Notes under the pieces: model-generated
The model's input: the letters and a program-made list of their open reading frames with translations, nothing else
Told to the model about the DNA's origin: nothing
Databases searched by the model: none
NCBI GenBank assembly: GCA_036395755.1
Contig: DASWCZ010000069.1
Coordinates: 77,988 to 141,987, forward strand
DNA from: Thermoanaerobaculia bacterium
GTDB taxonomy: Bacteria > Acidobacteriota > Thermoanaerobaculia > UBA5066 > Gp7-AA6
DNA: 64,000 nt
Reading direction: 5' to 3'
Part shown: one piece after another, positions 1 through 26,760 of the stretch
How the letters are laid out: each line of letters starts with the position of its first letter
Position numbering within the stretch: the first letter of the stretch is position 1
Translations under genes and position numbers: made by a program

Positions 1-840
1 GAGAGTCGTTCCGTCCCGATGGCAGAACTCTGCGACTTTGGTGAGAGGGATACGGCCGATTCTCCGAGCGACATAACCGATCATCGCTCTCGCCTGCGCC
101 CGCTCCGTTGAAAAGGCACGACCTCTCATCTCCTCGATATCGACACCTGCTCTACCCGCCACCACTCGCGCCAGCCGTTCGACGCTCCAAGTTCGTGGGC
201 GCTCCGGTTCGGCTGCTCTCTCGAACGCGATCCGCGCGAACCTCTCATCCCCCTTCACGACGCGCGCTACCGCGTTGAGGTCCTCATATGACTCCGGTTG
301 CTCGCAGCTCATGAACTCCCGATATCGGCGAGCCTCTCGGCCAGAGTCGGCACCAAGTAACTCGGAAAGTCCGTGCGTATCGAGCCACTCAGGCGGACGC
401 TCTCCCCGATAGAAGCGATCGCTTGACCAGCGGTAAAGCCGCGGCTCGCGCACGATTCCGGCCTTCACGGGATTCTCGTGAATGTAACGGACGAGGGCGA
501 GCAGGTAAGAGGTCTTCTGAACGAGTAAGGCCTTGTAGCGCCCTTGAAAGAGATGCCCTACCCGTTGGTGGCGCTGGTTGAACTTTTGAGCGTATGAACC
601 ATGTAGCGCCAACACGATCCGCGACAACGGAACCGGTCCGGTCTCGACTGCGAGGTGGACATGATTCGTCATGAGGCAATAGGCATAGAGACGAAAGCGG
701 AATCGATCGCGGTAGTGAGCGAGCCGTCGAAGGTAGATCTTCCGATCTGAGTCGTCTCGAAAGACCTCACGCTGCTCGTTGCCTCGCGCGATGACGTGAT
801 ACACCGCGCCCGAAAACTCCAGACGCTGTGGGCGCGACAT
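1..840 (-). mobile_element. REP-associated tyrosine transposase (RAYT; IS200/Y1 HUH family) with C-terminal DnaA-domain-IV-like HTH; 3' end outside window
   Basis: Not in ORF track. Manual translation from ATG at 840 is open to base 1: MSRPQRLEFSGAVYHVIARGNEQREVF...AYCLMTNHVHL (HUH)...GHLFQGRYK...VRYIHENPVKAG...YRWSS...ARAMIGYVARR...KVAEFCHRDGTTL. REP-like repeats lie directly upstream. Confidence 0.9.
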
Positions 841-1015: not shown

Positions 1016-2062
1016 TTACGGGTTGAACGTCGTCACGATCACCGCCTTGCCGAAGTTCGACGTGTCCGTTGTGTTCACTTCCGTGGTGATTCGCGACGCG
1101 TCGATCGCGTGGCGATCCACGAGATACGCCTTGGCGTTCTCCGCGCGCTGGCGGGCCAGGGATTCGCGGCGCGAAGCCGCGGTCCCGGTGTCCGGATATC
1201 CGGTGATGACGACAGCCGCACGCGGGTTCTCGCGCAGACGGAGCGCCACGGCGTCGAGACGCGCCTTTGCGATGTTGGTGACCCGCGCGCTGCCCCGATC
1301 GAAGTCGATCGTGTCCGTCGTAGGGGCCGGCGGAGGCGGCGGGGCGACCACGGGCGGAGCCGGCGGCGGCATCGGGGCGGGCGGAGTCTCGGGCGGAGCC
1401 GGAGGAGGCGGCGGCGGGGGCGGCGCCGGCGGCGGCGCGATGACGGTCGGCGCCGCATGGCCTCCGAAGTGGAAGAGAAGGCCGATGTTCGGCTCCACGT
1501 CGATCCGGCTGTCCTGCTCGAAATCGCCGAACCGGTCGTGGAGGGTCTTCTTGAAGTCGTAGACGCCCTTCGCTTCGAGTCTCAGGCCGACCGCCCGGCT
1601 GAACCGGTACTCCGAACCGAACGCAAGATAGGCGATCGGGACGCTGTCTCCCCCGGAGAACAGCTTTTCCCGAGAGATGCCGCCGCCCACCCCGAGGTAC
1701 GTGTTCCACCCGGGCACGCGGGGGGTGAAGTCGAACATTGCTCCGAGCGTCGCCTCCCAGTACTTGGGCCTCGAGTCGAAATACTGCGCGGTCAGCTCGA
1801 GCGCGAAGTGGTTCGTGACGAAAGTGCCGAGCCTCCCGCCGTAGAAGAGGTAGTTGGTCTGGTCCAGATTGCAATTGCACCGGAAGTCGCTGTCGCCGAT
1901 GAACACGTAGCCGACGTGCGGACCGATGTACCACTCGCCGGCGAGATCCGACGATGGGACCACCCGGTCGCTCACGTCAGTGTACGTTTGTGCCGACGCA
2001 GCTCCCGTGACCAGCAGGAGCGCAACCGCCGTTGTCAGGATCCCCGATTTCACTTTCCTCAT
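1016..2062 (-). CDS. OmpA-family outer membrane protein (beta-barrel, Pro-rich linker, OmpA C-terminal domain)
   Basis: Signal peptide MRKVKSG...ASAQ after GGAGG; amphipathic strands ending GLLFHFG; poly-Pro linker; TIDFDRGSA...VITGYPD...LARQRAENAKAYL. Confidence 0.85.
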   Translation of the reverse strand: MRKVKSGILTTAVALLLVTGAASAQTYTDVSDRVVPSSDLAGEWYIGPHVGYVFIGDSDFRCNCNLDQTNYLFYGGRLGTFVTNHFALELTAQYFDSRPKYWEATLGAMFDFTPRVPGWNTYLGVGGGISREKLFSGGDSVPIAYLAFGSEYRFSRAVGLRLEAKGVYDFKKTLHDRFGDFEQDSRIDVEPNIGLLFHFGGHAAPTVIAPPPAPPPPPPPPAPPETPPAPMPPPAPPVVAPPPPPAPTTDTIDFDRGSARVTNIAKARLDAVALRLRENPRAAVVITGYPDTGTAASRRESLARQRAENAKAYLVDRHAIDASRITTEVNTTDTSNFGKAVIVTTFNP

Positions 2063-15789: not shown

Positions 15790-16375
15790 CTCTCTCTTCC
15801 CAGTACGGCCGCATGCGTTCGCGGAGTTTCATCAAACCCAGGCGGATCCGCGTCTTGACGGTGCCGAGCGGGGTGGCCGTCCGCCCTGCGATTTCCTGGT
15901 GGGTGAGTCCGTCGAAGTAGGCGAGCTCGAGGGCGCGCCTCTGGTCGGCGGGGAGGTCCCCGATTGCGGCGCGGCAGATCGTCTCCCACTCGCGCGCCGC
16001 AGAGCCCGCTTCGACGTCGTCCCGCGCGGGGGCGTGCGCCAGCGGATCACGGCCGTCCGCGGCGCCCGAGGCCATCGGCCGCCTCGTTCTCAGACGATCG
16101 ATGGCGCGGCTGCGGGTCGCGATGATCAACCAGGCCAGCACGGAGCCGCGGAGGGGGTCGAAGGACGACGACGCCCTCCACGCGTAGAGAAAGACTTCCT
16201 GGACGACCTCCTCGGCCTCGCCGGTTTCGCCGAGGATCCGGTGGGCGACACCGAGGAGCCGCGCCGCATGACGGTCGTAGAGGCGCGCGAGCGCATCGGC
16301 GTCGCGCGCTTCCATCGCGGCGACGAGCACCCGGTCGCTCCGATCGGTGTCTGCCGGCTCTGCACGCGGATTCAT
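15782..16375 (-). CDS. ECF sigma factor, SigK-like
   Basis: LYDRH, AEEVVQEVFL, RSRAIDRLR, AYFDGLTHQEIA, PLGTVKTRIR; overlaps rskA. Confidence 0.92.
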   Translation of the reverse strand: MNPRAEPADTDRSDRVLVAAMEARDADALARLYDRHAARLLGVAHRILGETGEAEEVVQEVFLYAWRASSSFDPLRGSVLAWLIIATRSRAIDRLRTRRPMASGAADGRDPLAHAPARDDVEAGSAAREWETICRAAIGDLPADQRRALELAYFDGLTHQEIAGRTATPLGTVKTRIRLGLMKLRERMRPYWEERDA

Positions 16376-16428
16376 GGAACGTCTTTCCGAGCGAGGGGGC
16401 CGAAGGATACTCTTTTCGCGCGAAGCGG

Positions 16429-16455
16429 AAATCCAAGCGACGCCCGCCATCCGTA
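16429..16455 (+). promoter_or_regulatory. Putative SigK-type ECF promoter of DUF4331 gene
   Basis: aaATCC-N17-CGTA upstream of AAGGAGG SD. Confidence 0.55.
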
Positions 16456-16483
16456 TTCGACCACGTAACGAAGGAGGAACCCG

Positions 16484-17968
16484 ATGAAGAAGCTCTGGCG
16501 TCTGTCACGGAGCGGTACGGTCTGGACCGCCGCGCTCGCTTTCTCTCTCGCCACCCTGCTCGCCCCCCCGGCCGCCCGGGCCTCGAGCCACCGCGAAGCG
16601 CCGCTCATCAGTGCGGACCCCGAGGCGGACAACACGGACGTCTATTTCTTTCTGGATCCCGTAGACGGCGGACGGGTTGTGATGATCGGCAACTGGATCC
16701 CTCTGGAAGAGCCCGCCGGAGGACCGAACTTCTCGCATTTCGGCGAGGACATCCGCTACGAGTTCAACGTGGACTGGGACGGCGACGCGATCGAGGACGT
16801 CGTCTATCGCGTCACCTTCCACCGCAACGTGCGCAACCCGAACACGTGGCTCCAGAACACCGGCCCCGTGAGCTCCCCGACCGACACGAACCTGAACGTC
16901 TACTACACGTACAAGGTCGAGAAGATCCTGGGCCCCTCTCCCAACCAGAGCGCGGCCTCGAAAACCGTCCTCGGAGAAGACCTGATTGAGGCGCCCAACA
17001 ATGTCGGCCCGAAGTCGTTCCCGGGTGATCCTGCGGGCTCCGGCTATGGCAAGGGCTCCAACATCGCGAGCACGGTCTACACGGTCGACCAGGACACGAA
17101 GGTGTTCGCCGGACCGCGCGCCGACGGCTTCTACGCGGACCTCGGAATGATCTTCGACCTGATCAACTTCCGGCCCGGCACGCTGCCCGGCAACGCGGGC
17201 GGGGGCAAGAACGACCTCGCCGGGTTCAACACGCATACGATCGCGATCTCGGTCCCCATCTATCAGCTCACGAAGAACCACACGCTGCCGACTCTGACTT
17301 CCGACCCCAACGCGATCATCAGCATGTGGTCCTCGACGTGGCGGCTGCAGACCCGCGTCCTTTCCGACAGCGGCGAGAAGCCCACGGACTCCGGCGCCTG
17401 GGTGCAGGTCTCGCGCCTCGGCGTGCCGCTCGTCAACGAGGTCGTCATCCCGCTCGGCCAGAAAGACCTCTTCAACGCCTCCTATCCGAAGGACGACGCT
17501 CAGTTTGCGGCTTCGATTCTCGACCCGGAAGTTCCGAAGATCCTGAAGGCCCTCTTCAACATCGATTCGCCGCCCATGCCGCGCAACGACCTCCTCGCGG
17601 TCGTGCTCGGCGTCGACGGATTGACGCGCCGTCCCGGAGAGGTCATCTCCGACCAGCTCCGTCTGAACGTCGCCGTCTTCCCGACGCCGCCCTCGCTCGC
17701 CAACCGCATGGGGGTCCTCGGCGGCGATCTGGCGGGCTTCCCCAACGGACGGCGTCCATACGATGACGTGGTGGACATCGAGCTCCAGGTCCTGGCGGGC
17801 GTCCTCGTTCCCGCGTTCAACCACGCGCCGAACAACCAGCTGGGCGACGGGGTGGATGGACCGGACAAGCCGTACAACCCGGCGTTCCCGTGGCTCGCGA
17901 CGCCGCACTCGGGCTTCGATCACCGCCACGACGCGGCGCCGCAGATCACGCACTTCGGCGCGCAGTAA
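16484..17968 (+). CDS. DUF4331 family secreted protein
   Basis: Signal peptide then ASSHREAP, DNTDVY, QVSRLG.PLVNE, GFPNGRR..DDVVDI, FPWLATPH. Confidence 0.88.
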   Translation: MKKLWRLSRSGTVWTAALAFSLATLLAPPAARASSHREAPLISADPEADNTDVYFFLDPVDGGRVVMIGNWIPLEEPAGGPNFSHFGEDIRYEFNVDWDGDAIEDVVYRVTFHRNVRNPNTWLQNTGPVSSPTDTNLNVYYTYKVEKILGPSPNQSAASKTVLGEDLIEAPNNVGPKSFPGDPAGSGYGKGSNIASTVYTVDQDTKVFAGPRADGFYADLGMIFDLINFRPGTLPGNAGGGKNDLAGFNTHTIAISVPIYQLTKNHTLPTLTSDPNAIISMWSSTWRLQTRVLSDSGEKPTDSGAWVQVSRLGVPLVNEVVIPLGQKDLFNASYPKDDAQFAASILDPEVPKILKALFNIDSPPMPRNDLLAVVLGVDGLTRRPGEVISDQLRLNVAVFPTPPSLANRMGVLGGDLAGFPNGRRPYDDVVDIELQVLAGVLVPAFNHAPNNQLGDGVDGPDKPYNPAFPWLATPHSGFDHRHDAAPQITHFGAQ

Positions 17969-17984
17969 CTCCCTGTCTTTCGGC

Positions 17985-18021
17985 TCCCCGGTCCGGCCGC
18001 GCGCCGGGCCGGGGATTTTTT
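17985..18021 (+). terminator. Intrinsic terminator/attenuator between DUF4331 and ferritin-like gene
   Basis: TCCCCGGTCCGGC...GCCGGGCCGGGGA followed by TTTTTT. Confidence 0.7.
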
Positions 18022-18061
18022 GCGACCGTGCAGTAGGCTCCCGGCTCACGAGGAGGGTCGA

Positions 18062-18616
18062 ATGATTCACCAACCGCGCCGCGACTTTTTTCGCGCCGCT
18101 GCCCAGACCGGGCTGGCGCTCGGTCTCGCCGCCGCCGGCCGTCCCCTGATCGCGCTCTCTCCCAAAGAAGGCGGTGCCGCGGGGGACGACATTACCCTCC
18201 TGAACACGGCTCTCGCACTCGAGCACGAAGCGATCTGGGCGTACGGCCTCGCGGGGAAGAGCGGTCTCCTCTCCGCAAAAGCGAAAGAGGTCGGGCTCGC
18301 GTTCCAGGGCAGCCACGAGATCCACCGCGACCTGATCGTCGACGCCGTCAAGCGCAAGGGCGGAAGCCCGGTCGAGCCGAAGAAGGAGTACGTCTTCGGG
18401 GTTCCCCTCGCGAACGAGAAGGACGTGCTCGAGCTCGCGTTCCAGCTCGAGGTCGGCGCGGCGCGCGCCTACCTGACCGTCGTCGACAAGTTCCAGGACC
18501 GCGCGCTCTCCGCATCGGCAGGCCGGATCCTCTCCGACGAGGTTCTTCACGCGACCGTCCTGAGGAGCGTCCTCGGCCGGGACGTGGTCCCGACCTTCCG
18601 ACTCATTGAGAACTGA
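18062..18616 (+). CDS. Ferritin-like domain protein with Tat signal
   Basis: PRRDFF twin-arginine; LNTALALEHEAIWAY, HEIHRD, LEVGAARAY, ILSDEVLH. Confidence 0.85.
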   Translation: MIHQPRRDFFRAAAQTGLALGLAAAGRPLIALSPKEGGAAGDDITLLNTALALEHEAIWAYGLAGKSGLLSAKAKEVGLAFQGSHEIHRDLIVDAVKRKGGSPVEPKKEYVFGVPLANEKDVLELAFQLEVGAARAYLTVVDKFQDRALSASAGRILSDEVLHATVLRSVLGRDVVPTFRLIEN

Positions 18617-18617
18617 T

Positions 18618-18693
18618 GGGGTCAGGTTGGGGGCCAGGCTGCCACATTGGGGTCAGGTCTCCACTTGCCACATCGAGGGCCAGGCTGCCACAT
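18618..18693. repeat. REP-like repeat family B cluster (left arm of 44-bp inverted repeat)
   Basis: GGGGTCAGGTT, GGGGGCCAGGCTGCCACAT, GGGGTCAGGTCTCCACTTGCCACAT, GAGGGCCAGGCTGCCACAT. Confidence 0.85.
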
Positions 18694-18722
18694 ACCCGCC
18701 AGACCGGAACTCGCCGTAAGAC

Positions 18723-19595
18723 GTGAAGAGACGCGGATCTCTCGCCGTACTCCTGGCACTCGCGAGCGCCTGCCGCGGAGAAGGCGAGCGGCCGCTCCGT
18801 ATCGGGTCGAAGAACTTCTCCGAGCAGGTCATCCTGGGCGAGATCGCCGCCCAGGGTCTCGAGGCCCGTGGCGTGCGCGTCGACCGCAGGCTGAATCTGG
18901 GCGGCACGTTCGTCTGCCACCAGGCGTTGAAGGCCGGCGAGCTCGGCCTCTATCCCGAATACACCGGGACCGCGTTCACTGCGATCCTCGCCCGAAAACC
19001 GGTCTCGGAACCGGAGCTCGTCCGCGCCGAGGTCGCGAAGGAATACCGGAAACGCTGGAACCTCGTCTGGTCGCCGCCGCTCGGTTTTGAGAATACGTTC
19101 GCGCTCGTCATGCGCCGCGAGGACGCGGCGCGTTTGCACATCTCGAAGATCTCGGACCTGGCGGCGCACCCCGAGATCCGGCCGGGGTTCGGATACGAGT
19201 TTCTCGAGCGCGAGGACGGCTTTCCGGGGCTCGCGAAGACGTACGGCCTGCGCTTCTCGCAGCGGCCGGCGCAGATGGACCTGGGACTTCTCTACCAGGC
19301 GCTCGCCAGCCGCAAAGTCGACCTCGTGGCAGGCAACTCGACCGACGGCCTGATCGACGCGATCGGAGGGGTCGTGCTCCAGGACGACCGGCGGTACTTC
19401 CCGCCGTACGAGGCGGCGTTCGTGCTGGGCGCGGAAGTCTGGAAGCGGCCGGCGGTCCGGGCGTTCTTCGAGTCACTCGCTGGAACGATCGACGCGGCGA
19501 TGATGCGAAAAATGAATGCGTCAGTCGACCAGGACAAGCGCCGTCCGGAGGACGTCGCGCGCGAGTTCCTCAGGCGCTCGGTAAAATCACCCTAG
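18723..19595 (+). CDS. Osmoprotectant (glycine betaine/choline) ABC transporter substrate-binding lipoprotein
   Basis: Lipobox ASAC; IGSKNFSEQ, YPEYTGT, GFENTFAL, EREDG, DDRRYFPPY. Confidence 0.92.
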   Translation: MKRRGSLAVLLALASACRGEGERPLRIGSKNFSEQVILGEIAAQGLEARGVRVDRRLNLGGTFVCHQALKAGELGLYPEYTGTAFTAILARKPVSEPELVRAEVAKEYRKRWNLVWSPPLGFENTFALVMRREDAARLHISKISDLAAHPEIRPGFGYEFLEREDGFPGLAKTYGLRFSQRPAQMDLGLLYQALASRKVDLVAGNSTDGLIDAIGGVVLQDDRRYFPPYEAAFVLGAEVWKRPAVRAFFESLAGTIDAAMMRKMNASVDQDKRRPEDVAREFLRRSVKSP

Positions 19596-19600
19596 CAGGC

Positions 19601-19644
19601 ATGTGGCAACCTGACCCCCAATGTGGCAAGTGGAGACCTGACCC
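19601..19644. repeat. REP-like repeat family B (right arm of 44-bp inverted repeat)
   Basis: Reverse complement matches 18650-18693 at 40/44, outer 24 bp identical. Confidence 0.85.
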
Positions 19645-19646
19645 TC

Positions 19647-20279
19647 TCAAGGCTGCATCCGCCGCTCGAGGAACCCCAGCAGGCCGTCCGCGGCGAGGGC
19701 GAGGAGCGCGGCCGGAACCGCTCCCGCGAGGATCAACCGGTGATCGACGATCGCGACGCCGCGGTAGATTAGGACCCCGAGTCCCCCCGCTCCGATTGCA
19801 GCCGCGATGGTCGCGAGCCCGATTGACACCACGGTCGCGATCCGGACCCCGGCGAGAACAACCGGCAGCGCGAGCGGCAGCTCGACGAGCCGGAGGCGCT
19901 GCCGCGGCGTCATGCCGAGCCCGATCGCCGATTCGATGACCGCGGGGTCCACCGAGGAAATCCCGACGTGCGTGTTTCGAAGGATCGGGAGGAGCGCGTA
20001 GACGACGAGCGCGGCAATCGCGGTGCGCGCGCCGATCCCGCCGATGAGCGGCATCGGGATCAAAAACCCGAAGAGAGCGAGGCTCGGAATCGTCTGGACG
20101 ACGTTTGCGAAGCCGAGGATCGGACGCGCGAGACGAGGGCGCCGCGTCAGCGCGACCCCGAGCGGAACGCCGATGGCCACGGCGAGGGCCGTCGAGATGA
20201 GCACCAGGACGACGTGCTCTCCCGTCAGGGCCACGATTTCCGCCCGCCGTTCCCAGAAGTACGCGGAGAAATCGCTCAG
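19647..20279 (-). CDS. Osmoprotectant ABC transporter permease
   Basis: QTIPSLALFG, LLPILRNT, ESAIGLGM, VELPLA, IGAGGLG; probable CTG start overlapping ATPase TGA. Confidence 0.9.
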   Translation of the reverse strand: MSDFSAYFWERRAEIVALTGEHVVLVLISTALAVAIGVPLGVALTRRPRLARPILGFANVVQTIPSLALFGFLIPMPLIGGIGARTAIAALVVYALLPILRNTHVGISSVDPAVIESAIGLGMTPRQRLRLVELPLALPVVLAGVRIATVVSIGLATIAAAIGAGGLGVLIYRGVAIVDHRLILAGAVPAALLALAADGLLGFLERRMQP

Positions 20280-21028
20280 GGGGCCGCCCCCGGCAGCTCG
20301 TCGGAAACGAACTCGCGCACGAAGTCGTCCGCCGGCGCGGCGAGGATCTCCCGCGCGGTGCCGGTCTGCCGCGCCCGGCCGCGATCGACGATCGCGACGC
20401 GGTCGCCGAGCCGGAACGCTTCGCGCAGATCGTGCGTGACCAGGAGGACGGCCTTGTGAAGCCTCCGCTTCCAGTCCAGGAATTCCTTCTGCATCGAGCG
20501 CCGGGCGATCGGATCCAGCGCGCCGAAAGGCTCGTCCATCAGCAGAACCGGCGGGTCGGCGGCGAGCGCGCGCGCGACACCCACCCGCTGCCGCTGTCCG
20601 CCGGACAGCTCTCGCGGCCGCCGCTCCCCGAACTCCGCTGCGGGAAGCCCGACGAGCCCGAGGAGCTCTTCCGACCGCGCGCGTCTCTGGGTTTCCTTCC
20701 AGCCGATCAAGCGGGGTACGGCTTCGACGTTCTTCCTCACGCTCCAGTGAGGGAAGAGGCCCGCCTCCTGGATGACGTACCCGAGCCGCCGGCGCAGCGC
20801 GATCGGGTCCTCGCCCCGGACATCGCGGCCGAACACGAGAACCTCTCCCGAGTCGTGATCGAGCAGGCGATTGACGAGCTTCAACGCCGTCGTCTTCCCG
20901 CACCCCGAGGGACCGACGAGCGCGAGCGTCTCCCCAACGCCCACCGTCAGGGAGAGTCCGTCGAGCACCGAACGGCCGTCTCCGAACGACTTGCGGACGT
21001 CGCGAAATTCGATGACGGGAGGGGACAA
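20276..21028 (-). CDS. Osmoprotectant ABC transporter ATP-binding protein
   Basis: GPSGCGKTT, LSGGQRQR, LLMDEPFGALD; TTG start at 21028 after GGAG. Confidence 0.92.
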   Translation of the reverse strand: MSPPVIEFRDVRKSFGDGRSVLDGLSLTVGVGETLALVGPSGCGKTTALKLVNRLLDHDSGEVLVFGRDVRGEDPIALRRRLGYVIQEAGLFPHWSVRKNVEAVPRLIGWKETQRRARSEELLGLVGLPAAEFGERRPRELSGGQRQRVGVARALAADPPVLLMDEPFGALDPIARRSMQKEFLDWKRRLHKAVLLVTHDLREAFRLGDRVAIVDRGRARQTGTAREILAAPADDFVREFVSDELPGAAP

Positions 21029-21084
21029 GATGTTCGCTCCGGCTCCAGGTGAGCTTAGCTTCTCTCTTTGAGAGAATGGGAACG

Positions 21085-22371
21085 ATGTCGCAGCCTTACG
21101 ACGCGGTCGTGATCGGAGGAGGCCCCGGCGGCTCGACGGTGGCCACGCTGCTCGCGCGAGCGGGCCGCAAGGTCGTTTTGCTCGAGCGTGAGAAGTTCCC
21201 GCGTTTCCACGTCGGGGAGTCCCTTCTTCCCTACAACCTTCCAATCTTCGACCGTCTGGGCGTGGCGGAGAAGGTCCGCGCGGCCGGCTTTCAGCAGAAG
21301 CGCGGGGCGTACTTCTGGAACGAAGAGACGGGCGGCATCCGGCCGGTCGACTTCTCGACGGGGATCGACGACAGGCACCCCTCCGCTTACCAGGTCAAGC
21401 GCGCGGACTTCGACCAGCTCCTGCTCTCCCACGCCGCGGAGGCCGGGGCGGAAGTCCGCGAGGAGACCGCCGTTCTCCGGGTTCTCTTCGAGAACGACCG
21501 GGCAGTCGGGGTCGTCGCCCGCCGCCGGAGCGGCGCCGACCTCGAGATCCGGGCGCGGGTCGTCGTCGATGCGTCGGGGCAGGACGCTCTGCTCTCGCGT
21601 CAGCTCGGCACCCGGCGCTTCGACAAACGCTTGAAGCGCGCCGCGCTCTTCGCGCACTACGAGGGATTCCGCTGGCCGCAGGACCACCGGCCGGGCGACA
21701 TCCTGCTGCCGATCGACCGAGGCGTCTGGTACTGGATCATTCCGTTTTCCGACAAGACGTGCAGCGTCGGCGCAGTATTCGAGCCCTCGTTGGCCCGAAG
21801 CGGCGCCGGAGAGAATGCCTCGGTCGAAGATCGCTTCGACTGGCTCCTCGCCCGATCGGCACGCACGACCGAGCTCCTGGCCGGATCCAGACGGACGAGC
21901 CGGGTCTTCGGGATCTCGGACTACTCGACCTCCTCCGCGCGCGCCGCCGGCGATGGATGGGCGCTGGTCGGGGACGCGGCGACTTTTCTCGATCCGGTTT
22001 TCTCGACCGGCGTGTTCCTCGCGATGGCCATGGGAGAGCGCGTGGCGAAGCGGATCGACCGCGCGATCGAGACCCGCGGAGCCGTCCGCGCCGCCGACCT
22101 CGAGCCCTACAGCAGGGAGGCCCGCCGCCTGGTGGCGCGCTTCCGACGCTTCGTGTACGCCTTCTACGATCCGGTCTTCTTCGAGGCGTTCTGCTCCAAG
22201 GAGCCGTTCGACAGGATGCGCGCCGCCGTCACCACGATCCTCTCCGGAGGAGTCGAAAAAGTTTCCTTGATGTCGCGAATCTGGATCGAGCTCGTCTTTC
22301 TTTCGGTCGGCTTCGACCGTTTCCGCCGAAAGCTCGGAATCGGTCCGAAACCGGAGAACGCCGCGGCCTAG
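21085..22371 (+). CDS. FAD-dependent oxidoreductase, tryptophan-halogenase family
   Basis: GGGPGG, FPRFHVGESLLP, DASG, WYWIIP, GDAATFLDPVFSTG. Confidence 0.85.
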   Translation: MSQPYDAVVIGGGPGGSTVATLLARAGRKVVLLEREKFPRFHVGESLLPYNLPIFDRLGVAEKVRAAGFQQKRGAYFWNEETGGIRPVDFSTGIDDRHPSAYQVKRADFDQLLLSHAAEAGAEVREETAVLRVLFENDRAVGVVARRRSGADLEIRARVVVDASGQDALLSRQLGTRRFDKRLKRAALFAHYEGFRWPQDHRPGDILLPIDRGVWYWIIPFSDKTCSVGAVFEPSLARSGAGENASVEDRFDWLLARSARTTELLAGSRRTSRVFGISDYSTSSARAAGDGWALVGDAATFLDPVFSTGVFLAMAMGERVAKRIDRAIETRGAVRAADLEPYSREARRLVARFRRFVYAFYDPVFFEAFCSKEPFDRMRAAVTTILSGGVEKVSLMSRIWIELVFLSVGFDRFRRKLGIGPKPENAAA

Positions 22372-26393: not shown

Positions 26394-26487
26394 GGGGTCG
26401 GGTCTTCACGAGTCACCGCAACCAGCGTTCAGTCGGACGGAGCTTTGCCACTTTGCATGGCAAAGTGGCAAATGGAGACCTGACCCC
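26394..26487. repeat. REPIN-like element of family B
   Basis: Ends GGGGTCGGGTCTTCA / TGGAGACCTGACCCC (13/15 IR); internal perfect 13-bp hairpin TTTGCCACTTTGC-ATG-GCAAAGTGGCAAA (26444-26472). Confidence 0.8.
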
Positions 26488-26760
26488 ATGAACTACCACT
26501 GGGCCGATTGCCCCAACTGCCTCTGCCACCTCGCGGTCAACTGGACGATGCGTCCGGGCGAGATTCTGGGATCGGTGCGCCGCTGGTCCGCCGATCGGTC
26601 GATCAACGACGGAAAAGCATTTCAGCTGCCGGGGGCCGCCGGCGCGACCCCTCTGGTCGTTTCGTGCGTCTGCGGCGCTCCGATTTCGCTTCCCGACCCG
26701 CCCGACGCCGTCGGCGGCGAGCGCTCCGATGACCTGCGCGTCAAGCTCACCGCCGACTGA
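26488..26760 (+). CDS. Small Cys-rich hypothetical protein (90 aa)
   Basis: MNYHWADCPNCLCH...VSCVCG; C-terminal part of track ORF 25210..26760; fits between DGC and Smr genes. Confidence 0.65.
   Translation: MNYHWADCPNCLCHLAVNWTMRPGEILGSVRRWSADRSINDGKAFQLPGAAGATPLVVSCVCGAPISLPDPPDAVGGERSDDLRVKLTAD

Follow-up and report, generated by a model that had tools for sequence, protein, structure and literature searches.

Phase-variable invertons such as Hin/Gin and Fim consist of a short DNA segment lying between inverted repeats, and the orientation of this segment sets the transcription unit of a gene or a promoter. Gene inversions generally are described as arising by homologous recombination on inverted repeats (account in PMC11040001), and in Drosophila the transposon Galileo is described as having produced inversions by ectopic recombination, with opposite copies of the transposon at both breakpoints (outline in PMC2775673). 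Repetitive extragenic palindromic (REP) sequences and the tyrosine transposases associated with them (RAYTs) are represented by the REP/RAYT and REPIN systems of Gammaproteobacteria (as summarized by Bertels & Rainey 2011; PMC3116915, PMC3337134), and the RAYTs described in the summary of Nunvar et al. 2010 (PMC2817692) were found only in Gammaproteobacteria. Here we describe a locus of an uncultured genus of Thermoanaerobaculia (Acidobacteriota) where a single gene, which encodes the OpuAC-family substrate-binding protein (SBP) of an ATP-binding cassette (ABC) importer, lies on the strand opposite to that of its permease and ATPase genes and is enclosed by short inverted repeat arrays. The locus is part of a window, that is, the whole stretch of 64,000 nucleotides that was analysed (G000:C69:77988-141987, where G000 is the source genome and the labels C and L stand for contigs and extracted loci). 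A comparison with relatives allows us to conclude that the SBP gene most probably underwent a single inversion, in the ancestor shared by four related soil species, through recombination between arrays of a RAYT-associated repeat that lay in inverted orientation.

Gene order in relatives

We collected 15 genome loci with the SBP protein and placed five genes (ATPase, permease, SBP, ferritin-like and DUF4331) by tblastn; 80 further loci (L160-L239) came from metagenome contigs, some of which may represent the same populations as the genomes, so that not all of them are independent. One genome, G024, is unpublished; its share is limited to a single ancestral locus, to one outgroup row out of three in the trees and to part of the rows in the RAYT search, and G030 enters tally rows only. 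In 11 of the 15 genome loci (G005, G014, G006, G004, G007, G003, G012, G002, G024, G020 and G019) the ATPase, permease and SBP genes are co-oriented in this order, and, where the flank is present, the ferritin-like and DUF4331 genes face this ancestral arrangement convergently. In the other four (G000, G011, G009 and G010; SBP 91-100% identical), only the SBP gene is turned round. The metagenome loci gave the same picture: 71 are ancestral, two are inverted and seven bear no flanking gene. Both inverted contigs, L160 with all five genes and L161, encode an SBP 93-96% identical and carry the repeat on each side of the gene. Re-inverting the segment would thus give the co-oriented ATPase-permease-SBP operon that the earlier note had anticipated, and the repeat-free relatives, whose order it had proposed to compare, are indeed co-oriented and not convergent.

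That the gene has travelled as a mobilised cassette, as that note had also considered, is not supported: in each of the 15 genome loci it adjoins the permease gene (in 12, the ferritin-like gene was found alongside as well), and in 73 of the 80 metagenome loci it adjoins the same permease and/or ferritin-like/DUF4331 genes, the other seven being those without flank; in G000 it is the only OpuAC gene found (E<=1e-20).

The four inverted genomes form one clade with a support of 100/99, both in the tree of flanking proteins (ATPase, permease and ferritin-like) and in the SBP tree, and therefore one inversion suffices. Within this clade the synonymous divergence (dS) of the SBP gene is 0.17-0.47 and the ratio of nonsynonymous to synonymous divergence (dN/dS) is 0.08-0.14; the latter is 0.11-0.22 in six un-inverted genomes, so that the constraint in the inverted clade is no weaker. 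The substitution pattern indicates that the SBP gene has been under purifying selection after the flip and is still functional. Judging from this divergence, the inversion is an old event, and the gene stayed in use.

Could the reversed order be an assembly error at the repeats, a possibility that the earlier note had left? In support, the data from public runs (short-k contigs from 20 soil, rhizosphere and sediment runs) break at the repeats and cannot fix the orientation. The pieces obtained (18300-18677, an internal one of 984 nt at 18655-19638, and 19617-20000) have their ends inside the repeats, and a short-k "joint" 18671>19621 has 23 letters on one side, which are accounted for by the 24-nt repeat itself. 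Because the pieces end there, these contigs are silent on orientation and on minority forms. However, the same order is present in six independent assemblies, namely four separately assembled genomes of different species and two metagenome contigs; moreover, ordinary reads are longer than the arrays (44-76 nt), whose inner parts are not the same on the two sides. The probability of a mis-assembly is thus practically negligible.

Repeat arrays and inversion breakpoints

The features of the locus, in window coordinates, are the following.

16484..17968, plus strand: DUF4331 gene (PF14224, E 2e-129), the outer neighbour, untouched by the inversion; adjoins the ferritin-like gene in relatives
17985..18015, plus strand: terminator-like hairpin, rich in GC and followed by a T-run, in the interval from the DUF4331 to the ferritin-like gene, a consensus match only (13-pair stem, 11 GC pairs, then TTTTTT)
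18020..18616, plus strand: ferritin-like gene (Ferritin_2/DUF4439, from the domain search); its stop TGA at 18614-18616 abuts the left repeat array
18618..18693, plus strand: left repeat array, comprising a truncated unit 18619-18627, a short unit 18631-18647, a long unit 18650-18673 and a short unit 18677-18693
18694..18722, plus strand: "tail" between the left array and the SBP start, looking like the SBP 3' end copied in inverted orientation and since diverged
18723..19595, plus strand: OpuAC-family SBP lipoprotein gene (PF04069, E 3.4e-59), the inverted segment; start GTG at 18723, stop TAG at 19593-19595
19601..19644, minus strand: right repeat array; in the minus-strand reading, a long unit 19621-19644, then a short unit 19601-19617
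19647..20279, minus strand: ABC permease gene (PF00528, BPD_transp_1); stop TGA at 19647-19649
20276..21028, minus strand: ABC ATPase gene (PF00005, ABC_tran), ProV-like, without a long C-terminal extension; given as 20276-21244 in the domain search
26425..26490, minus strand: third repeat copy of the window, palindromic type (head and 13-bp hairpin), with the 24-mer match at 26463-26486

The two arms, 18650-18693 and the reverse complement of 19601-19644, are identical at 40 of 44 positions, including all of the outer 24 nt, and the inverted repeat can be extended to 53 nt at 87% identity (18650-18702 / 19592-19644). Three matches to the 24-mer at <=3 mismatches were found in the window, vs. 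0.00 expected from 100 shuffles. The right arm ends 2 nt short of the permease stop, and the left array starts 1-2 nt past the ferritin-like stop. The arm coordinates and identity counts of the earlier note therefore hold, and so does the 2-nt distance from the permease stop; domain search and codon positions also agree with it in assigning the SBP gene to the plus strand and the permease and ATPase genes to the minus strand. Its left arm was correctly placed but covers only part of the left array, which comprises four units.

Arrays were present on both sides of the SBP gene in all six inverted loci (four genomes and two metagenome contigs). Of the 82 ancestral loci, 76 (9 genome and 67 metagenome) have no repeat. 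The repeat is on the permease side only in two, G014 (between the permease stop and the SBP start) and L168, and on the ferritin side only in four, G012 (between the ferritin-like and SBP stops), L165, L166 and L236, the three latter being near-identical to one another. At repeat-free loci the permease stop is at or just before the SBP start, with a GTGA overlap where the junction was inspected closely (G005 and G007). Across the four inverted genomes, nine of the ten long units at the SBP locus are 24/24 identical; the short units and the spacers vary.

The one-sided loci make it possible to locate the breakpoints. In G014 and L168 the permease-side module consists of the permease stop, long and short units, a tail of 38-40 nt and the SBP start. 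The outer flank of this array (the permease stop) is that of the right arm, and its inner flank (the tail and the SBP start) is that of the left arm; in the inverted genomes a G014-type inner flank is found behind the ferritin-like stop, and the outer flank (the permease stop and 2-6 nt) is at the other junction. The first 120 nt of the G014 SBP gene are 83-86% identical to those of three inverted genomes, 77% to G010 and 63-73% to the other ancestral genomes, and the G014/L168 tail likewise specifically resembles the tails of the inverted genomes. On the ferritin side, the array of G012 and L165 matches the left arm on its outer side and the right arm on its inner side. Such an exchange of flanks is predicted by a crossover in inverted arrays and not by an inversion followed by later insertions, and therefore the breakpoints lie within the arrays. 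Since the G014/L168 array shares flanks with both arms, it pre-dates the inversion and spans the breakpoint.

These data bear directly on the view that the segment was inverted by an unrelated route and that the repeats were inserted later and independently at both new junctions. It is true that insertions of the repeat beside stop and start codons recur, and one-sided insertions at these very junctions are found in separate lineages of the flank tree. Nevertheless, this view is extremely improbable given that the G014/L168 array has its inner flank in common with the inverted left arm and its outer flank with the right arm, and that none of the six inverted loci lacks the repeat.

The tail deserves separate consideration. 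When the SBP 3' end that follows the right array is read as its reverse complement, stop codon included, it is similar to the tail (18/22 positions in G011). In a shuffle test the similarity reached p<=0.001-0.02 for G000, G011 and G009, as well as when the G014 tail was compared with the 3' ends of G000, G011 and G010; for the tail of G010 itself it was not significant. The similarity was less marked in a second test with looser anchoring (p 0.007, 0.0145 and 0.058, the rest not significant), so that the statistical support is moderate and uneven. From this similarity, the inverted repeat was probably longer at the time of the inversion, and the array may have been copied across the SBP gene together with flanking DNA. 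G011 has a third tail-like copy inside its right array. Two other readings of the tail were rejected. In G000 it is not a regular part of the repeat, as what follows the remaining short units of this genome bears no relation to it (15 short-unit sites, 3 of them at the SBP locus). An extension of the homology into the EFL codons gave suggestive alignments, with the second shuffle test being weak.

Probable course of the inversion

Starting from an operon ATPase-permease-SBP in which the permease stop overlapped the SBP start and which was convergent with the ferritin-like and DUF4331 genes, arrays would have been inserted just past the permease stop and just past the ferritin-like stop, with their GGGTCAGG ends outward. 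A crossover inside the arrays would then have flipped the 0.9-kb segment between them, and the inversion would have become fixed, leaving the SBP gene uncoupled from the transporter operon, downstream of the ferritin-like gene and co-oriented with it. The likely activity would be general homologous recombination or else template switching, and not a dedicated invertase. Serine recombinases (PF00239) gave no match in G000, and tyrosine recombinases (PF00589) gave three, on C82, C96 and C60, none being on C69, recombinase families beyond these two not having been searched; this agrees with the observation of the earlier note that the window holds no site-specific invertase.

The ferritin-like and SBP genes are convergent in the ancestral order and co-oriented in G000, where the flip removed the GTGA coupling to the permease and the SBP gene now lies 106 nt downstream of the ferritin-like gene. 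The current route of SBP transcription is one that we infer: if the hairpin at 17985-18015 is functional, the ferritin-like and SBP genes would need a promoter of their own. No promoter-like sites were found within 16300-21400.

Several observations weigh against a crossover between two arrays. The immediate precursor, an un-inverted SBP gene with arrays on both sides, was found at none of the 95 loci. The flank tree places G014 with G005 and G007, which are repeat-free, and G012 with G006 and G002; because they are not sisters of the inverted clade, the one-sided genomes represent parallel or recombinant states and not proven ancestors. As all the inverted loci trace to one event, the association between repeat and inversion is, evolutionarily, a sample of one (n=1). 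The inverted repeat runs ~17-22 nt beyond the repeat units into the SBP 3' end, which two simple insertions followed by a crossover do not explain. The identical stretch of the present-day arms is only 24-26 bp. Such a length is near the lower limit for RecA-type recombination. Finally, a control gene of the EamA type (G000:C47:28880-29794) is boxed by two long units per side in G000 and G010 and by three in G004, has the repeat on one side in G014 and is repeat-free in G007, G002 and G005, and its relative orientation is the same in all of them. Despite its longer arrays, this box is thus not inverted in any of the three boxed genomes. Since the orientation is the same in boxed and un-boxed genomes, boxing alone does not flip a gene, and the suggestion that it always leads to inversion is ruled out. 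In G010 the match of the EamA-type gene (L024, G010:C193, 1501-2357) is split into two parts that lie in different frames (residues 1-162 and 171-295), which may reflect a frameshift or a pseudogene.

The EamA box also helps to judge whether the SBP gene is a live reversible switch, toggling within populations between the strand of the ABC operon and that of the DUF4331/ferritin-like unit, as the earlier note had suggested. Recombination between flanking inverted repeats preserves their geometry and so is reversible in principle, G014 and L168 could be flip-backs, and the long units remain identical in nine of ten copies despite a dS of up to 0.47. However, all six assemblies with both-sided arrays show a single orientation, searches with PF00239 and PF00589 revealed no invertase gene nearby, and the inner parts of the arms no longer match fully (40/44), so that ~24 identical bases remain; the EamA box, whose identical arms are longer, has one orientation in all three boxed genomes and in all the un-boxed relatives. 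A switch operating today is therefore highly unlikely. Of the alternatives put forward in that note, it is the fixed past inversion bounded by REP-like repeats that survives, on the grounds of the relatives' gene order and of the single clade.

The repeat family and its transposase

The genome G000 (3.25 Mb in 97 contigs, 66.8% GC, 97.6% complete) contains 63 exact copies of the 24-mer and 110 at <=4 mismatches. When grouped, they make up 112 units in 71 arrays (40 have one unit, 22 two, 8 three and 1 four), and the 31 arrays of 2-4 units are direct, head-to-tail, with a 27-nt period. The short form of 17 nt corresponds to the long unit minus CTCCACT and often comes after a long unit. A completed terminal hairpin is present in 22 of the 71 arrays and an inverted unit within 45 nt in 8; no GT[AG]G head directly before the palindrome was seen, by inspection only. 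At the loci inspected the copies are extragenic. The repeat was found in all 15 genomes of the genus (3-178 copies each) and in none of 26 genomes that represent 16 further genera of this family and order. When one genome of each prokaryote species was scanned, at least 112 stretches were obtained, and among the matches listed all were from Thermoanaerobaculia or Acidobacteriota metagenome-assembled genomes (MAGs).

Neither array at the SBP gene forms a single-strand fold (left, z -0.2 for RNA and +1.9 for DNA; right, z +1.7 and +2.1, respectively). The copy at 26425-26490 does fold, with a perfect 13-bp stem and a DNA z of -3.56 that was matched by 0 of 200 shuffles; this copy directly abuts CAT, the reverse of ATG. 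An RNA or terminator role for the arrays was rejected, given the lack of a significant fold and of any Rfam match at E<=1 within 17500-21500.

Three genes for Y1 transposases (PF01797) were found in G000. The cognate RAYT (G000:C14:118-1089, 323 aa) has its PF01797 match at C14:160-483 with 42.6 bits vs. a cut-off of 23, and it scores 79.7 bits, just under the cut-off of 80, with the NCBIfam model NF047646 "REP-associated tyrosine transposase". Arrays lie on both of its sides, at 49-99 (plus strand) and 1103-1180 (minus strand), with their CACAT ends pointing at the gene, and this inward-facing geometry is the same as that around the SBP gene. The repeat is on both sides of the RAYT gene at 10 of 11 loci of the genus, the eleventh (G010) being cut by a contig end; the one out-of-genus RAYT locus checked, G018, is without the repeat. 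RAYT orthologues of at least 76% identity were found in G011, G004, G008, G010, G014 and G012, which together with G000 hold 25-178 repeat copies. A paralogue of 53-56% was found in G001, G006, G003 and G007, with 27-56 copies, and only a distant match or none in G002, G005 and G013, with 3-27 copies. G009 (68% complete) gave no RAYT match, yet it has 57 copies. The copy number of the repeat thus tracks the presence of the cognate transposase, G009 apart.

A second Y1 transposase, 40% identical to the cognate RAYT, is encoded in the window itself at 55-840 on the minus strand (G000:C69:78042-78827; PF01797, 61 bits); no inverted repeats were found around it in 1-1400, and no 24-mer copy is nearby. 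The third homologue is at C69:157722-158558, outside the window. The RAYT proposed earlier as a candidate catalyst accordingly has a counterpart in the genome, flanked by the same repeat, and a homologue in the window. As for the designation "REP-like", it is justified by the RAYT association, the abundance and the lineage-specificity of the repeat; a palindromic unit is what it does not share. We call the repeat RAYT-associated and REP-like, not a canonical REP, because the SBP arms do not fold, only 22 of 71 arrays end in hairpins and no GT[AG]G head was seen.

It might be supposed that the inversion came from the mobility of the repeat itself, the array and adjacent DNA being copied in inverted orientation to the other side of the gene by the RAYT or in a replication-coupled manner; such an event would be akin to intramolecular transposition or template switching, as opposed to general recombination between insertions of separate origin. 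The existence of the cognate RAYT, its boxing by the same repeat in the SBP-like inward geometry and the resemblance of the left tail to the inverted SBP 3' end in G000, G011 and G009, which fits an array copied with flanking DNA, all speak for this. On the other hand, in G014 and L168 an array and a tail precede an un-inverted SBP gene, so that the duplication and the inversion are separable events, and the tail similarity is not significant for G010 and is weaker in the second test. For Y1 transposases of the IS200/IS605 type, which work on a single DNA strand, two inverted copies are no obvious inversion substrate. We regard this route as unlikely.

A broader proposal is that the repeat and the RAYT form a system which boxes single host genes in the inward geometry and is able to flip or re-wire them, the SBP box being one product, made by copying the array with 20-40 nt of SBP 3' sequence, and still reversible. 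Hints in this direction come from the invariance of the long unit (at a dS of up to 0.47), from the tail/SBP 3' similarity and from an inward bias among arrays 0.7-1.5 kb apart: 14 neighbouring pairs are inward-facing, none is outward-facing and 2 are on the same strand (G000 and loci L028-L139). These 14 pairs reduce to ~5 independent loci (RAYT, SBP, EamA, a 294-aa gene on C40, and L115), and the two opposite geometries are equally common at spacings of 1.5-6 kb (11 vs. 14). Taken together, we hold this proposal to be distinctly unlikely and retain a single crossover between arrays as the most probable explanation.

Other arrays of G000 show further contacts with genes. Their outward end often touches an opposite-strand start codon, as in ...GGAGACCTGACCCC(C)ATG (e.g., C47:29804-29830, C14:3091 and C21:3249), and others touch stop codons (TGA, TAG or ATA, then GGGTCAGG). 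From its sequence, the repeat may provide a Shine-Dalgarno-like GGAG ~10 nt upstream of neighbouring genes. The contig ends G000:C14:1-120 and C34:1-120 both consist of the same array and the first bases of the RAYT region, and further contigs (C36, C97) start or end in arrays, so the repeat fragments the assembly. Because contigs break at arrays, the family matters to those who assemble MAGs.

The importer and its neighbours

An OpuAC-fold SBP, a BPD_transp_1 permease and a ProV-like ATPase encoded together mark the importer as one of the OpuA/OpuC/ProU type (glycine betaine family). All its scores with NCBIfam equivalogs were far under the cut-offs (OsmF, 109 vs. 400; the ProV subfamily TIGR01186, 266.9 vs. 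326.6 bits). The SBP has an N-terminal signal peptide of the lipoprotein type ending in LASAC, which we take to be the lipobox. The start codon of the permease is uncertain: its frame lacks an ATG, GTG or TTG close to the conserved N-terminus, and the first residues to be conserved begin at a CTG that overlaps the ATPase stop (CTGA, 20276-20279, minus strand), and relatives align from residue 1.

Across the metagenome loci (L160-L239), the ABC operon remains convergently paired with the ferritin-like and DUF4331 genes as far as ~65% SBP identity, and the two most distant loci (56-57%) have the ABC genes only. This conserved gene order hints at a functional link between the operon and the ferritin-like/DUF4331 unit. 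The spacer between the SBP and ferritin-like genes is filled by a different dispersed palindromic repeat (...gtcatcc[tc]gag...gatc...) in L006, L008, L010, L014, L162, L168 and L171, and in two of these, L168 and L171, the final SBP residues appear to be encoded by it (C-termini ...ATRNP...).

Comparison with known systems

Both inversion mediated by inverted repeats and REP-RAYT systems are already known, and the locus represents no new class of mechanism. New are the lineage of the host, a repeat whose tandem form is mostly non-palindromic and the inversion of a single gene with surviving intermediates. Among the top 20 of 486 and the top 15 of 2,420 literature records we found no report of a REP-bounded single-gene inversion, and nothing relevant came up on Thermoanaerobaculia repeats, which is a weak negative. 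The locus is a clean natural example of a short dispersed repeat reshaping operon architecture, since the ancestral state, both one-sided states and the inverted state all exist in living relatives. It also implies that an ABC importer tolerates the gene of its binding protein being cut from a coupled operon and placed on the other strand, and that this arrangement persists for long (dS up to 0.47). A RAYT-associated family in Acidobacteriota, mostly in direct tandem arrays, should be useful to researchers of REPs and REPINs.

Like the REP/BIME-RAYT (BIME, bacterial interspersed mosaic element) and REPIN systems of Gammaproteobacteria, the family described here is a short lineage-specific repeat with ~100 dispersed copies per genome, its Y1-transposase gene lies between two inverted repeat copies, and its copy number follows the cognate transposase. 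Unlike them, it resides in Acidobacteriota, most of its copies are non-palindromic and form direct head-to-tail arrays, with hairpin ends in 22 of 71, and its RAYT of 323 aa has a long C-terminal part. The locus differs from phase-variable invertons in that no invertase is nearby, one orientation is seen in six of six assemblies, the arms have diverged and the segment is a whole gene, not a promoter. Galileo, as outlined in PMC2775673, is a eukaryotic kb-size DNA transposon with megabase inversions, whereas here a 24-nt bacterial repeat bounds an inversion of 0.9 kb. The closest likeness is to the gene inversions on inverted repeats in the account of PMC11040001: a repeat pair brackets the segment, no dedicated recombinase is evident, and a fixed change of strand is visible in comparative genomics. 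In comparison with that account, the repeats at the SBP gene are very short (24 identical bases, 44-53 nt overall) and belong to a REP/RAYT family, the inversion took a single gene out of a translationally coupled operon, and the one-sided states survive in relatives.

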